Below, one piece after another: positions 23,909-31,318 of a stretch of DNA of 64,000 nucleotides. The position numbers and the translations under genes are program-made. The DNA is taken from NCBI RefSeq assembly GCF_013122565.1, contig NZ_CP053258.1. One strand, 5' to 3'. The notes beneath the pieces are model-generated. The model was not told the DNA's origin, made no database searches, and worked only from the letters and a program-made list of their open reading frames with translations. How positions within the stretch are numbered: the first letter of the stretch is position 1; the number at the start of each line of letters is the position of its first letter. The DNA is from Escherichia coli. Its GTDB lineage: Bacteria; Pseudomonadota; Gammaproteobacteria; Enterobacterales; Enterobacteriaceae.

Positions 23909-24814
23909 ATGCGTCGAACGTTTATCAAAAAAGAAGGCGTCGTTATCACGACACTGGCCCGTTATTTGTTGGGTGAAAAATGCGGTAATAGGTTGAAAAC
24001 CATAGATGAGCTGGCAACTGAATGCCGTTCATCCGTTGGCCTGACGCAGGCCGCGTTGAAAACGCTGGAATCAAGCGGAGCGATACGGATTGAACGCCGT
24101 GGGCGCAATGGCAGTTATCTGGTCGAGATGGATAACAAAGCATTGCTGACTCATGTGGATATCAACAACGTGGTATGTGCGATGCCCTTGCCCTATACCC
24201 GTTTGTACGAAGGCCTGGCGAGCGGATTGAAAGCTCAGTTTGATGGCATTCCTTTTTACTATGCTCACATGCGCGGTGCGGATATTCGCGTGGAGTGTCT
24301 GCTTAATGGCGTGTATGACATGGCGGTGGTTTCCCGACTGGCGGCGGAAAGTTATCTCACGCAAAAAGGGTTATGCCTCGCGCTGGAGTTGGGGCCGCAC
24401 ACTTACGTTGGCGAGCACCAGTTGATTTGCCGTAAAGGCGAGTCCGCAAACGTGAAGCGCGTGGGGCTGGATAACCGTTCGGCGGATCAGAAAATCATGA
24501 CAGATGTCTTTTTTGGCGGTAGTGATGTGGAACGAGTCGATCTCTCTTATCACGAGAGTTTACAACGCATTGTTAAAGGCGATGTCGATGCGGTTATCTG
24601 GAACGTGGTGGCGGAAAACGAACTGACCATGCTGGGATTAGAAGCGACGCCGCTCACGGACGATCCGCGATTTTTACAGGCCACCGAAGCCGTGGTCCTG
24701 ACGCGTGCCGATGATTACCCAATGCAACAACTGCTGCGTGCAGTTGTTGATAAACACGCCCTGCTCGCCCATCAACAACGAGTGGTGAGTGGGGAACAGG
24801 AACCGAGTTATTAA
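23909..24814 (+). CDS. yhfZ: Putative transcriptional regulator YhfZ
   Basis: ORF-track 301 aa; first gene of the yhf cluster. Confidence 0.8.
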   Translation: MRRTFIKKEGVVITTLARYLLGEKCGNRLKTIDELATECRSSVGLTQAALKTLESSGAIRIERRGRNGSYLVEMDNKALLTHVDINNVVCAMPLPYTRLYEGLASGLKAQFDGIPFYYAHMRGADIRVECLLNGVYDMAVVSRLAAESYLTQKGLCLALELGPHTYVGEHQLICRKGESANVKRVGLDNRSADQKIMTDVFFGGSDVERVDLSYHESLQRIVKGDVDAVIWNVVAENELTMLGLEATPLTDDPRFLQATEAVVLTRADDYPMQQLLRAVVDKHALLAHQQRVVSGEQEPSY

Positions 24815-24830
24815 ACGAAAGGCATCTGAT

Positions 24831-25193
24831 ATGGAAACCAGACTCAACCTGCTTTGCGATGCAGGCGTTATTGATAAGGACATCTGCAAAGGCATGATGC
24901 AGGTCGTCAACGTACTGGAAACAGAGTGCCATCTGCCGGTGCGCAGTGAGCAAGGAACGATGGCGATGACACATATGGCGAGTGCACTGATGCGCAGTCG
25001 CCGTGGTGAAGAAATTGAGCCACTGGATAACGAGTTGCTGGCAGAGCTGGCGCAATCCAGCCACTGGCAAGCCGTTGTGCAATTGCATCAGGTGTTGTTG
25101 AAGGAATTCGCATTGGAAGTTAACCCGTGTGAAGAAGGCTATTTGCTGGCCAACCTTTATGGATTATGGATGGCTGCTAACGAAGAGGTTTGA
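24831..25193 (+). CDS. yhfY: PRD-domain protein YhfY
   Basis: Start moved to ATG 24831 (METRLNLL...) giving 120 aa. Confidence 0.72.
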   Translation: METRLNLLCDAGVIDKDICKGMMQVVNVLETECHLPVRSEQGTMAMTHMASALMRSRRGEEIEPLDNELLAELAQSSHWQAVVQLHQVLLKEFALEVNPCEEGYLLANLYGLWMAANEEV

Positions 25194-25276
25194 AGCTCCC
25201 GACAAATCCACGTCGCACAACCTAAATATTCAAAAAAATGAATATTTAATTCAAGGAACAGAAACGAGGCAACAAG

Positions 25277-28905: not shown

Positions 28906-28916
28906 AAGGCACGACT

Positions 28917-30221
28917 ATGGATCTGTATATTCAGATTATCGTGGTGGCGTGCCTGACGGGTATGACATCGCTTCTGGCGCATCGCTCGGCGGCTGTTTTT
29001 CATGACGGTATCCGCCCGATCCTGCCGCAGCTGATTGAAGGCTATATGAACCGTCGCGAGGCGGGGAGTATCGCTTTTGGTCTGAGCATTGGTTTTGTGG
29101 CCTCGGTGGGGATCTCTTTTACCCTGAAAACCGGGCTGCTCAACGCATGGTTACTCTTTCTTCCTACCGATATCCTCGGCGTACTGGCGATAAACAGCCT
29201 GATGGCGTTTGGTCTTGGCGCTATCTGGGGAATATTGATCCTCACCTGTCTGTTGCCGGTAAACCAGCTGCTGACCGCGCTACCGGTGGATGTATTAGGT
29301 AGCCTCGGGGAATTAAGCTCGCCGGTGGTTTCTGCTTTTGCACTGTTCCCGCTGGTGGCGATTTTCTACCAGTTTGGCTGGAAGCAAAGTCTGGTCGCCG
29401 CCGTGGTTGTTCTGATGACCCGTGTGGTAGTCGTGCGCTATTTCCCACATCTTAACCCTGAATCCATCGAAATCTTTATTGGCATGGTGATGCTGCTGGG
29501 GATCGCGATAACTCACGATCTGCGTCATCGTGATGAAAATGACATCGATGCCAGCGGGCTTTCGGTGTTTGAAGAGCGCACGTCGCGGATTATCAAAAAC
29601 TTACCCTATATCGCCATCGTGGGAGCATTGATTGCCGCCGTTGCCAGCATGAAGATTTTTGCTGGCAGTGAAGTGTCGATCTTCACTCTGGAGAAAGCAT
29701 ATTCCGCAGGCGTGACGCCGGAACAATCGCAAACGCTGATCAACCAGGCGGCACTGGCAGAATTTATGCGCGGGCTGGGTTTTGTACCGTTGATTGCCAC
29801 CACCGCCTTAGCAACGGGTGTGTATGCAGTTGCGGGCTTTACCTTTGTTTATGCGGTGGGCTATCTCTCGCCGAATCCGATGGTTGCAGCGGTATTAGGC
29901 GCAGTGGTTATTTCGGCGGAAGTCTTGCTGCTTCGTTCTATCGGCAAATGGCTGGGACGCTACCCGTCGGTGCGTAATGCGTCGGATAACATCCGTAACG
30001 CCATGAATATGCTGATGGAAGTGGCGCTGCTGGTCGGTTCGATTTTCGCAGCAATTAAGATGGCGGGTTATACCGGATTCTCTATCGCGGTTGCCATTTA
30101 CTTCCTCAACGAATCCCTGGGCCGTCCGGTACAGAAAATGGCGGCACCGGTCGTGGCAGTAATGATCACCGGTATTCTGCTGAATGTTCTTTACTGGCTT
30201 GGCCTGTTCGTTCCGGCTTAA
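28917..30221 (+). CDS. yhfT: YhfT, polytopic inner-membrane protein (putative transporter)
   Basis: ORF-track 434 aa, hydrophobic throughout. Confidence 0.8.
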   Translation: MDLYIQIIVVACLTGMTSLLAHRSAAVFHDGIRPILPQLIEGYMNRREAGSIAFGLSIGFVASVGISFTLKTGLLNAWLLFLPTDILGVLAINSLMAFGLGAIWGILILTCLLPVNQLLTALPVDVLGSLGELSSPVVSAFALFPLVAIFYQFGWKQSLVAAVVVLMTRVVVVRYFPHLNPESIEIFIGMVMLLGIAITHDLRHRDENDIDASGLSVFEERTSRIIKNLPYIAIVGALIAAVASMKIFAGSEVSIFTLEKAYSAGVTPEQSQTLINQAALAEFMRGLGFVPLIATTALATGVYAVAGFTFVYAVGYLSPNPMVAAVLGAVVISAEVLLLRSIGKWLGRYPSVRNASDNIRNAMNMLMEVALLVGSIFAAIKMAGYTGFSIAVAIYFLNESLGRPVQKMAAPVVAVMITGILLNVLYWLGLFVPA

Positions 30222-30232
30222 GGAAGGCACCT

Positions 30233-31318
30233 ATGAAGACGTTTCCTCTGCAAAGCCTGACGCTTATTGAGGCGCAGCAAAAGCAGTTTGCGCTGGTGGA
30301 TAGCATTTGTCGCCATTTCCCCGGCAGCGAGTTTCTTACTGGCGGTGATTTAGGCTTAACGCCAGGACTGAATCAACCGCGCGTTACCCAGCGTGTGGAA
30401 CAGGTGCTGGCTGATGCATTTCACGCACAGGCTGCGGCGCTGGTGCAGGGCGCGGGGACTGGCGCGATTCGCGCCGGGCTGGCGGCTTTGCTCAAACCGG
30501 GGCAGCGTCTTCTGGTGCATGACGCGCCTGTTTACCCGACGACACGGGTTATTATTGAGCAGATGGGGCTGACGCTTATTACTGTTGATTTCAATGACCT
30601 GTCGGCACTGAAGCAGGTCGTCGACGAGCAACAACCGGATGCGGCGCTGGTGCAGCATACGCGCCAGCAGCCGCAGGACAGCTACGTGCTGGCAGATGTG
30701 CTGGCAACGTTGCGCGCGGCAGGTGTTCCAGCGTTAACCGATGACAACTATGCGGTGATGAAGGTGGCGCGAATCGGCTGTGAATGCGGCGCGAATGTCT
30801 CGACATTTTCCTGCTTCAAGCTATTTGGGCCAGAGGGTGTTGGTGCAGTGGTCGGCGATGCTGATGTTATCAACCGTATTCGCGCCACGCTTTACTCCGG
30901 CGGTAGCCAGATCCAGGGCGCACAGGCGCTGGAAGTATTGCGTGGTCTGGTGTTTGCGCCAGTGATGCACGCGGTGCAGGCAGGGGTATCTGAACGGTTG
31001 CTGGCTTTGCTTAACGGTGGTGCGGTGCCGGAAGTGAAAAGCGCGGTGATTGCTAATGCGCAGTCGAAGGTGTTGATTGTCGAGTTTCATCAGCCGATTG
31101 CCGCCAGAGTGCTGGAAGAGGCGCAAAAGCGCGGTGCCTTGCCTTACCCGGTGGGTGCAGAGTCGAAATATGAAATCCCGCCGCTCGTTTATCGCCTTTC
31201 CGGAACGTTTCGCCAGGCGAATCCACAATCAGAACATTGTGCGATTCGCATTAACCCGAATCGCAGCGGTGAAGAGACGGTGCTGCGGATTTTGCGTGAG
31301 AGTATTGCCAGTATTTAA
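30233..31318 (+). CDS. yhfS: YhfS, PLP-dependent enzyme-like protein
   Basis: ORF-track 361 aa; last gene of the yhf cluster. Confidence 0.82.
   Translation: MKTFPLQSLTLIEAQQKQFALVDSICRHFPGSEFLTGGDLGLTPGLNQPRVTQRVEQVLADAFHAQAAALVQGAGTGAIRAGLAALLKPGQRLLVHDAPVYPTTRVIIEQMGLTLITVDFNDLSALKQVVDEQQPDAALVQHTRQQPQDSYVLADVLATLRAAGVPALTDDNYAVMKVARIGCECGANVSTFSCFKLFGPEGVGAVVGDADVINRIRATLYSGGSQIQGAQALEVLRGLVFAPVMHAVQAGVSERLLALLNGGAVPEVKSAVIANAQSKVLIVEFHQPIAARVLEEAQKRGALPYPVGAESKYEIPPLVYRLSGTFRQANPQSEHCAIRINPNRSGEETVLRILRESIASI

Follow-up and report, generated by a model that had tools for sequence, protein, structure and literature searches.

The yhfZ-yhfS cluster of Escherichia coli as a candidate module for uptake and catabolism of an anionic amino compound

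Introduction

In the dga system of Salmonella, DgaE acts on D-glucosaminate-6-phosphate made by a phosphotransferase system (PTS). In Enterococcus faecium, open reading frames (ORFs) 1-9 of the element TnEFM-UMCG-1 encode an SFCGS protein, DUF4312, DUF4311 and DUF4310 proteins, an amidohydrolase/deacetylase and a DgaE-family ammonia-lyase dependent on pyridoxal phosphate (PLP), and continue with a KDPG-aldolase-family protein, a PTS EIIC component and a BglG-family regulator (PMC11934601). An amidohydrolase-superfamily deacetylase and a PLP-dependent deaminase of the D-amino-acid type degrade GlcNAc1A, an oxidised chitin monomer, in the ong pathway of Pseudoalteromonas (PMC9537276), and mammalian PTER is an N-acetyltaurine/N-acetyl-beta-alanine amidohydrolase with a Glu-bridged metal site (PMC11374699, PMC12873775). 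Here we analyse the eight-gene yhfZ-yhfS cluster of Escherichia coli, at positions 23909-31318 of a 64,000-nt stretch of contig NZ_CP053258.1 (assembly GCF_013122565.1; hereafter the window), which encodes a PTER homologue, Php, together with regulators, PLP enzymes and a membrane protein, and compare it with these systems.

The yhfZ-yhfS locus is already known and annotated. It is one of the largest conserved operons of E. coli K-12 without an assigned function, in spite of the crystal structures available for four of its eight products, three of them titled 'uncharacterized' or 'hypothetical' (4KBX, 4J8L, 2OZZ) and the fourth just 'phosphotriesterase homology protein' (1BF6/4LEF). In the literature, yhfW appears as an uncharacterized match in an antibiotic-survival overexpression screen and in a DNA pull-down, yhfZ as an uncharacterized match in a peptide-resistance screen, and a riboswitch paper mentions the operon only as adjoining elements predicted elsewhere (PMC4448311). 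A previous sequence-only reading of the window had proposed that these genes form a complete uptake-plus-catabolism module for which no published pathway accounts. Our search of about 8 million open full-text papers and preprints, with subscription-only literature outside its reach, agreed with the latter point and returned no published substrate or pathway for yhfZ-yhfS.

The analysis presented here indicates, with a high degree of confidence, that the cluster is a dedicated uptake and catabolism unit with its own regulators. On balance, we favour a module for the repressor- and PTS-controlled import and catabolism of an anionic N-acyl or lactone alpha-amino (sugar) acid, probably phosphorylated. 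The new elements are the RpiB fold and invariant cysteine of DUF2620 (YhfU), the co-evolution of YhfU and YhfT, a link to SFCGS/DgaE clusters, an analysis of the constant and variable genes of the cassette, and a candidate operator.

Results

Eight intact genes, yhfZ, yhfY, yhfX, yhfW, php, yhfU, yhfT and yhfS, follow one another in this order on the plus strand, according to both the ORF listing and the RefSeq annotation. Relatives of YhfX were found in 414 of about 100,000 species genomes, and the best 80 of these 414 species-level loci were examined; in total, ORFs were called in 92 loci (labelled L0xx where they have to be told apart) and matched to the eight E. coli Yhf/Php proteins. The complete set was present in the Enterobacterales Escherichia, Citrobacter, Klebsiella spallanzanii, Trabulsiella, Buttiauxella, Cedecea, Serratia, Providencia and Limnobaculum, and also in several Firmicutes (Faecousia, Oscillospiraceae, Desnuesiella, Erysipelotrichaceae). 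Most or all of the genes also occur together, between unrelated flanking genes, in Photorhabdus and Xenorhabdus, which lack YhfW, and in Vibrio and Photobacterium, which lack YhfS; Enterovibrio retains only YhfU, YhfT, YhfX and YhfW, and distant metagenomic contigs carry the arrangement PRD-DUF2620-YhfT-PTE-YhfX-Metalloenzyme. The recurrence of these genes, in almost the same order, in phyla far apart goes well beyond what chance would give, and with neighbours that change from genus to genus the unit behaves like a transferable cassette. The constant parts are YhfX and, with two exceptions, the YhfU-YhfT pair; Php is nearly constant, the two regulators are usual, and YhfW and YhfS are accessory members. 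Neither a kinase gene nor an EIIA gene was found inside any of these clusters, the only PTS parts seen being an HPr gene in L010 and an unrelated EIIC gene in L004. Carriers are gut, insect-pathogenic and marine bacteria.

Within the species, bases 23500-31800 of the window have a match in 5425 of 5426 complete E. coli genomes, the best identities being 97.9-98.1%, and because none exceeds 98.1% across the locus, the source strain can be considered somewhat divergent. The whole locus is found in 5061 of these genomes and none of it in 343; strain A30, among the latter, keeps only 36 nt.

The transporter part of the cluster consists of YhfU, a DUF2620 protein according to Pfam, and YhfT, a member of a rare family (305 representative clusters at E <= 1e-3 among 1.84 billion proteins). 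YhfT matches PF10797 only, has no close match among solved structures, did not show an EIIC-type membrane fold when tested for one, and keeps conserved arginines. In 86 loci yhfU lies directly 5' of yhfT, a median of 10 nt apart, and in L002/L003 the pair stands alone, without enzyme genes nearby. Bit scores of YhfU and YhfT co-vary with r = 0.985, versus 0.51-0.54 when compared with those of YhfX. The pair exists in two divergent subtypes that always change together: YhfU and YhfT are both of type 1 in 34 loci and both of type 2 in 41, the only mixed case probably being the frameshifted locus L081. In Citrobacter sp. R56 (L018, 13353-15082) and Atlantibacter (L028, 13251-15036) the enzymes are 70-80% identical to those of E. 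coli and the pair is of the other subtype, with YhfU/YhfT scores of about 80/210 against 240/860 for the alternative one; the pair has been swapped as a unit within an otherwise conserved operon. A separate observation concerns a high-GC contig (L011 3530-4555, L012 1559-2584) where YhfT is followed by a shikimate-dehydrogenase-like Rossmann protein, with no DUF2620 gene before it, and has a ribose-type ABC permease, a PRD gene and homologues of yhfW/yhfX as neighbours.

The top fold match of YhfU is RpiB, with 104-107 of its 117 residues aligned, which gives it the RpiB/LacAB fold. An invariant loop, D-Y-Y-x-G-A-C52-N-T-G-x-G, aligns with the catalytic cysteine loop of RpiB; Cys52 occupies the position of the catalytic base and sits where a glycine-rich loop leads into the N-terminus of a helix, within a small alpha/beta domain. 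RpiB has an Asp-His pair after strand 1 and phosphate-binding arginines at its C-terminal helix. In YhfU strand 1 ends in an invariant Gly8 and the chain stops at residue 117; of the catalytic features of RpiB it keeps only the Cys-x-Thr-Gly-x-Gly loop, and its match to Pfam LacAB_rpiB (PF02502), with an E-value of 0.16, does not place it in that sequence family. A weak relationship was found in another direction: 9 of 24 DUF2620 sequences weakly match Gly_rich_SFCGS (PF14272), and some members match TIGR03577 (EF_0830) with E-values of 7e-6 to 1e-4 (22-26 bits against a cut-off of 141), while YhfY matches TIGR03582 (EF_0829) weakly (28.4 bits against 69.35). By these scores, DUF2620 and YhfY are distant paralogues of SFCGS/EF_0830 and EF_0829, respectively, rather than members of those families. 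None of the homologues listed joins DUF2620 to a PTS domain in one polypeptide. The earlier description of YhfU as a DUF protein stands, and can be sharpened to that of an RpiB-fold partner of a transporter.

As for the enzymes, hidden Markov model (HMM), Pfam and PDB searches bore out the family assignments first proposed for the products of all eight genes, and catalytic residues are intact in all four enzymes and kept across the collected orthologues and phyla. Php, the protein of structures 1BF6/4LEF, belongs to the phosphotriesterase (PTE) family (PF02126), its metal ligands, H12 and H14 of the HxH motif, E125, H158, H186 and D243, being kept in at least 97% of 84 orthologues, and also has conserved basic residues (K23, R61, K213, R222, R246). 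It is about equally distant from archaeal phosphotriesterase-like lactonases (137 bits), the PTER-like protein 3K2G (126 bits), the Listeria structure 3PNZ (119 bits, E 2e-33) and PTE (118 bits), and falls far short of the models for organophosphate hydrolase (NF041153, 97.6 bits against a cut-off of 500) and phospho-furanose lactonase (NF045706, 96.9 against 630). YhfW falls in the Metalloenzyme family, and the name 'phosphopentomutase' given to it derives from its own model PRK12383 (738.8 bits). Its similarity to DeoB is partial, with 145 bits against a cut-off of 341.2 for TIGR01696, so that a full-length match was not obtained, and 182 against 256 for PRK05362, with the best stretch in the C-terminal part (residues 235-400; residues 239-402, E 2e-31, in comparison with phosphopentomutases in PDB). 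Residues D10, D83-(T/S)84, H88, D298, H302, D338, H339 and H350 are conserved in 58 YhfW sequences, and we take them to correspond to the metal ligands and Thr/Ser nucleophile of DeoB in the Bacillus cereus structure.

The two PLP enzymes are similarly remote from characterized proteins. YhfX (4KBX), in whose orthologues Pfam detects Ala_racemase_N, has an invariant PLP lysine, K61, in the motif M-T-K-Q-x-G-R, which places it in fold-type III. Profile searches relate it to alanine racemase (E 1e-5) and D-threonine aldolase (2e-3), and its sole NCBIfam match is ornithine racemase Orr (NF040742), with 32 bits against a cut-off of 480. YhfS (4J8L) has an invariant S193-x-x-K196 motif containing its PLP lysine, K196, and finds methionine gamma-lyase and cystathionine gamma-synthase at E ~1e-9; its best score with the Cys/Met gamma-family is 41.8 bits against a cut-off of 666, and it thus appears to be related to that family and to lie outside its characterized subfamilies. 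Because none of the enzymes reaches the curated cut-off of a characterized subfamily, reaction types can be stated only at the superfamily level.

The cluster begins with two regulatory genes. YhfZ, a GntR-family regulator, is recognized by the NCBIfam equivalog YhfZ_full (NF041241) with 373.8 bits against a cut-off of 260, and contains the Pfam domains HTH_41 (residues 24-71) and YhfZ_C (75-301); a canonical GntR-type Pfam helix-turn-helix (HTH) was not reported in the Pfam scan. Residues 74-301 correspond to the structure 2OZZ, and this C-terminal domain is presumed to bind a ligand. YhfY, in whose orthologues a Pfam PRD was found, consists of a lone PRD with no nucleic-acid-binding domain in the same polypeptide, and keeps His48, within the motif T-H-x-A-x-A-x-x-R, in at least 90% of 79 sequences. 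DNA binding would then appear to reside in the adjacent YhfZ, the two proteins making up a split regulator.

Three palindromes (O1 to O3, Table 1) with a common core, TTCA-N6-TGAA, are located upstream of yhfZ and yhfX. The extended pattern AATATTCA-N-TGAAWAT occurs in the window only at O2 and before yhfX, with 0 occurrences expected. The core motif is found at the same two places throughout Enterobacterales and usually once, upstream of yhfZ, in Vibrionaceae, where the genes form one unit; it was not present in the Firmicute loci examined. Because the motif and its positions are shared across Enterobacterales, the palindromes can be viewed as the footprint of a cluster-specific repressor, and they are probably YhfZ operators. 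In addition, the sequence TGTGA-N6-TC.C. is found in the same position 5' of yhfZ in Escherichia, Citrobacter, Buttiauxella, Cedecea, Photorhabdus, Xenorhabdus and Serratia, and might tentatively be taken as a CRP site and a candidate for catabolite control. A scan for promoters and terminators gave no signal above shuffle expectation, and Rfam at E <= 1 gave only the REP-related naRNA4. A riboswitch or antiterminator in the 83-nt gap between yhfY and yhfX, or elsewhere, was considered and set aside in favour of the DNA palindrome.

Coordinates are collected in Table 1. The eight genes sit between trpS and frlR, as in RefSeq E. coli; the K-12 locus, 97.9% identical, has the same genes, order and lengths, and a K-12-derived record shows dam-rpe-gph-trpS, then yhfZ to yhfS, then frlR-frlD-frlC-frlB on the opposite strand. 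ORF list, RefSeq, hairpin folds and Rfam agree that the co-directional genes extend from the trpS terminator to a repetitive extragenic palindromic (REP) element, as first proposed: a GC-rich palindrome (31359-31397) and a REP hairpin (31419-31453) follow yhfS, and the region 31405-31464 gives a sub-threshold Rfam naRNA4/REP match. From yhfZ to yhfS the intergenic distances are 16, 83, -1, -4, 10, 11 and 11 nt. The overlaps pointed out previously can be read directly in the sequence (TAATG, 1 nt, in the yhfX/yhfW junction GCGTAATGGCG; ATGA, 4 nt, in the yhfW/php junction CCCTATGAGTT), and the gaps of about 10 bp described with them hold for those of 10, 11 and 11 nt and not for that between yhfY and yhfX, which carries the conserved palindrome. 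The mechanical ORF of yhfY extends to a GTG at 24789, overlapping the end of yhfZ; the RefSeq start is the ATG at 24831. With a GC content of 0.51-0.57, like that of its flanks, composition was uninformative as a signature of foreign DNA. Immediately downstream, and convergent with yhfS, lies the fructoselysine operon (frlR, frlD, frlC, frlB; 31470-34000, minus strand). This adjacency is specific to Escherichia, and a functional tie between both units was rejected, neighbours being different in every other genus.

Table 1. Features of the yhfZ-yhfS cluster; positions refer to the window, except where a locus label is given.
Feature	Position	Strand	Description
trpS intrinsic terminator	23765-23791	+	10-bp hairpin (23765-23788) and U-run, -15.1 kcal/mol, z -3.7; upstream boundary of the cluster
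CRP-like half-conserved element, TGTGA-N6-TCGCC	23818-23833	+	about 85 nt upstream of yhfZ; right half poor
Palindrome O1, ATCTTCATTTTAATGAAGAT	23861-23880		perfect 10-nt arms; kept upstream of yhfZ in Enterobacterales and Vibrionaceae
Palindrome O2, AATATTCACTTTATTGAAAAT	23883-23903		ends 6 nt before the yhfZ ATG; conserved
yhfZ	23909-24814	+	301 aa; transcription regulator, HTH_41 and YhfZ_C
yhfY	24831-25193	+	120 aa; stand-alone PRD domain protein
Palindrome O3, AATATTCAAAAAAATGAATAT	25225-25245		32 nt 5' of yhfX; hardly varies within the yhfY-yhfX gap in Enterobacterales
yhfX	25277-26440	+	387 aa; fold-type III PLP enzyme, Ala_racemase_N and YhfX-like_C
yhfW	26440-27666	+	408 aa; DeoB-type Mn-dependent phosphoryl-transfer enzyme, divergent cap domain
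php	27663-28541	+	292 aa; PTE-family amidohydrolase-superfamily hydrolase, Glu-bridged binuclear metal site
yhfU	28552-28905	+	117 aa; DUF2620, RpiB/LacAB-fold protein with invariant Cys52 loop; cytoplasmic partner of YhfT
yhfT	28917-30221	+	434 aa; polytopic membrane permease, rare family
yhfS	30233-31318	+	361 aa; fold-type I PLP enzyme, YhfS-like_C
GC-rich palindrome and REP element	31359-31464		fold -78.4 kcal/mol, z -6.2; downstream boundary of the cluster
Amidase-signature inserts	L086 6868-7995; L090 6965-8023; L091 5599-6621		340-375 aa; motif G-S-S-S-G ... D-G-G-G-S

Several clusters of other genomes carry additional genes. Distant ones adjoin sugar-type transporter genes (SBP_bac_1/BPD_transp_1, BPD_transp_2, PTS_EIIC), and a Cof-type sugar phosphatase gene is present in L006. 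In three Firmicute clusters a truncated amidase-signature gene is inserted between yhfT and php (Table 1), and a 768-aa protein of [Clostridium] citroniae (AFDB G5HJH7) is an apparent fusion of YhfT and amidase domains. In a Faecousia metagenome-assembled genome (L083, 4543-6105) a gene for a lipoprotein resembling PBP4B and class C beta-lactamases lies between the PRD gene and yhfU; it scores 231 bits with the PBP4B model, below its cut-off, and may correspond to an extracellular step releasing the substrate. Photobacterium loci (L068 19201-21118; L071 19245-21049) have a second yhfZ-like and php-like pair about 7 kb downstream of the main cluster, adjoining PTS genes of the lactose/cellobiose type, which may be a paralogous system. 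In L005 (11815-16353), three ATP-grasp genes and an MFS transporter gene directly 3' of PRD-DUF2620-YhfT-PTE-YhfS-YhfX may tie that cluster to a peptide-like natural product. Finally, KDPG-aldolase-, KDG-kinase-, uronate-isomerase-, oxidoreductase- and TRAP-like genes, recognized by eye from N-terminal sequences, adjoin the cluster of Vibrio tubiashii (L070, 13337-19228). This hexuronate/KDG set was not found in the other Vibrio loci checked and is probably there by coincidence.

Discussion

The family assignments and the synteny across genera support the idea of a complete uptake-plus-catabolism module put forward previously. From the gene content, folds, catalytic residues, conservation, YhfU/YhfT co-evolution and palindromes described above, we infer a class of substrate and an order of steps. 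YhfT would import the compound with its cytoplasmic partner YhfU, whose Cys52 loop would bind, and possibly transfer, a phosphoryl group, the compound being phosphorylated during or after uptake. Php would then open an ester/lactone or amide bond, YhfW, as a DeoB-type phosphomutase, would reposition or remove the phosphate, YhfX would racemise or deaminate at the alpha-carbon, and YhfS would carry out a second elimination or a transamination. YhfZ would repress both promoters via TTCA-N6-TGAA until its C-terminal domain binds an inducer, and the PRD protein YhfY would couple expression to the phosphorylation state of the PTS. The cluster would then be a self-contained, horizontally exchanged module for one small anionic amino compound, which, as part of this overall proposal, we consider somewhat probable. 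In favour of the phosphate or anion theme we count the acidic and histidine residues of YhfW, the basic residues of Php, the arginines of YhfT and the kinase-free clusters; in favour of a PTS link, His48 in the PRD of YhfY and the HPr and EIIC genes of L010 and L004; and in favour of amide chemistry, the amidase-signature genes of Firmicutes, the YhfT-amidase fusion, the PBP4B-like lipoprotein and the precedents of PTER and ong.

Several points weigh against this proposal. The locus is dispensable, given that 343 of 5426 complete E. coli genomes lack it. The reaction type of each enzyme is a guess at the family level, Php, YhfX, YhfW and YhfS being far below the cut-offs, and the best structural matches of YhfU are isomerases and not transport proteins. 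YhfT appears without DUF2620 in two distant contexts, L010 and L011/L012, beside ABC-transporter genes. The few published mentions of the cluster are matches in unrelated screens, and the support gathered here is wholly computational.

The other readings of the data overlap in part and are not mutually exclusive. A sharper form of the uptake step is that YhfU and YhfT constitute a new PTS permease, in which YhfU, phosphorylated on Cys52, would be an EIIB-like protein charged from HPr or a shared EIIA, YhfT would be EIIC-like, and the substrate would arrive phosphorylated. This would explain both the kinase-free cluster and the control by a PRD, and fits with the setting of the invariant cysteine described above, with the strict co-evolution of both proteins, with the PRD protein adjacent in most clusters and the HPr and EIIC genes just mentioned, and with kinases being missing even though YhfW is a phosphoryl-transfer enzyme. 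The SFCGS cluster offers a parallel, since the block from SFCGS to the aldolase has no annotated kinase and yet encodes a DgaE-family lyase and a KDPG aldolase, enzymes which in the Salmonella dga system act on 6-phosphorylated substrates. We nonetheless hold this permease to be doubtful, because the strongest structural similarity of YhfU is to RpiB isomerases, with the cysteine at the position of the catalytic base, the 92 loci have no EIIA gene in any cluster and the homologues listed include no DUF2620-PTS fusion. That YhfU-YhfT and the distantly related SFCGS and DUF4311/4310/4312 sets together form a new class of PTS-coupled group translocators is, in our view, rather unlikely; if so, an RpiB-fold protein bearing the phosphoryl group on its invariant cysteine would be an 'EIIB' of a new fold, the rare-family permease would be the membrane component, amidohydrolase and PLP enzymes would receive N-acyl or lactone amino-sugar acids in phosphorylated form, and the system would report to a split regulator formed by the PRD of YhfY and the HTH of YhfZ. 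The same RpiB similarity, together with the loop retained in YhfU, would suit a different scheme, where YhfU is a soluble RpiB-like isomerase and YhfT an ordinary secondary carrier, in a pathway for a phospho-sugar lactone like that of Lmo2620: a kinase or PTS encoded elsewhere would phosphorylate a sugar-like substrate, with Php hydrolysing the phosphorylated lactone, YhfW moving the phosphate to another position, YhfU acting as an aldose-ketose isomerase and the PLP enzymes taking off an amino group. The scores of Php with the phospho-furanose lactonase model (96.9 bits) and with 3PNZ (E 2e-33), the sugar-type transporter genes beside distant clusters and the Cof-type phosphatase of L006 agree with it. 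Such a pathway seems unlikely, since YhfU lacks the C-terminal helix, has Gly8 at the end of strand 1 and reaches an E-value of just 0.16 with LacAB_rpiB, Php is far under the lactonase cut-off of 630 bits, and YhfU follows YhfT in evolution instead of the enzymes, the pair even occurring with no enzyme genes nearby in L002/L003.

The substrate could also be an amino acid derivative other than a sugar, such as an N-acyl-D-amino acid, a compound of the homoserine-lactone type or an O-phospho or phosphono amino acid that animal or invertebrate hosts release, with Php as deacylase or lactonase, YhfX as racemase, YhfS as gamma- or beta-lyase and YhfW as phosphatase or mutase. The nearest solved relatives of YhfX are alanine racemases, and its sole NCBIfam match is an ornithine racemase; YhfS is nearest to methionine gamma-lyase and cystathionine gamma-synthase, PTER hydrolyses N-acetyl-amino-sulfonates, amidase-signature and PBP4B/D-aminopeptidase-like accessory genes accompany Firmicute clusters, and the carriers are gut, insect-pathogenic and marine bacteria. 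All these similarities are, however, weak (profile-level E-values of 1e-5 to 1e-10), sugar-phosphate chemistry is where a DeoB-type mutase and an RpiB-fold protein are otherwise usually found, and transporters beside distant clusters are of the sugar type, which makes us regard a non-sugar substrate as improbable. Lastly, a non-catabolic role, be it detoxification or antimetabolite resistance, synthesis of a metabolite, or the persistence in E. coli of a decaying cryptic remnant, might be suggested by the lack of a known growth phenotype, the matches in antibiotic and peptide screens upon overexpression or deletion, the ATP-grasp and MFS exporter-like genes next to L005 and the 6% of E. coli genomes without the locus. 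It appears very improbable to us when set against eight intact ORFs, a full locus in 5061 of 5426 genomes, catalytic residues kept across phyla, a set of hydrolytic and lyase enzymes with no ligase or synthase in the cluster, and a layout typical of an inducible catabolic operon, i.e. a repressor and operators at the promoters, a CRP-like site, PRD control and an importer.

Once the function of the cluster is solved, one more nutrient or host-derived metabolite could be counted in the known diet of gut, insect-pathogenic and marine bacteria, and reactions could be assigned to four orphan enzyme subfamilies, the bacterial counterpart of mammalian PTER among them. YhfT and DUF2620 represent a transporter family without structural or functional precedent, and, if the cysteine protein were indeed a phosphocarrier, the known range of the bacterial PTS would be extended. 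The operator motif, the distinction between constant and variable genes and the DgaE/SFCGS link narrow the search to N-acyl, lactone or phospho amino (sugar) acids. Taken together, the new findings make the function of yhf genes experimentally approachable, with YhfZ and the yhfX promoter as direct handles.

Compared with known systems, YhfY shares with regulators of the BglG/LicT, MtlR and LevR types a PRD with a conserved phosphorylatable histidine, H48, but as a lone PRD it has neither an RNA- nor a DNA-binding domain. The RpiB/LacAB isomerases are longer than YhfU by about 30 residues; YhfU is without their C-terminal helix, has a Gly instead of the Asp-His pair, and is genetically tied to a membrane protein and not to sugar-phosphate enzymes. 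Php shares the TIM barrel and binuclear metal centre (H12, H14, H158, H186, D243) of PTE-family hydrolases and, like PTER, bridges the metals with a Glu (E125) instead of a carbamylated Lys; because PTER is an amidohydrolase with the same Glu-bridged site, Php may act as an amidase and not as a lactonase. The ong pathway, which occurs in marine and chitin-associated bacteria, follows the same logic as the route proposed here, namely import of an N-acyl alpha-amino sugar acid, a deacylase, a PLP deaminase and control by a repressor. Its proteins differ from those of the yhf cluster (D-aminoacylase, SSS transporter, KDG kinase, RidA), and it includes no phosphorylation before deamination, no mutase and no RpiB-fold protein.

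The SFCGS/DgaE clusters resemble yhf in having a small PRD or BglG-type regulator, a glycine-rich Cys-loop protein of about 115 aa beside unusual membrane proteins, and an amidohydrolase-superfamily hydrolase with a PLP lyase, again with no annotated kinase in the core block. Their membrane part is made up of DUF4311, DUF4310 and DUF4312, versus the single YhfT; they combine a KDPG aldolase with DgaE, whereas the yhf cluster has no KDPG-aldolase gene, relies on the PLP enzymes YhfX (fold-type III) and YhfS and has an extra DeoB-type mutase, and scores across both families are all below curated cut-offs. Given that the substrate of DgaE is the PTS-made D-glucosaminate-6-phosphate, the suggestion arises that these sets of Cys-loop and membrane proteins may deliver phosphorylated amino-sugar acids.

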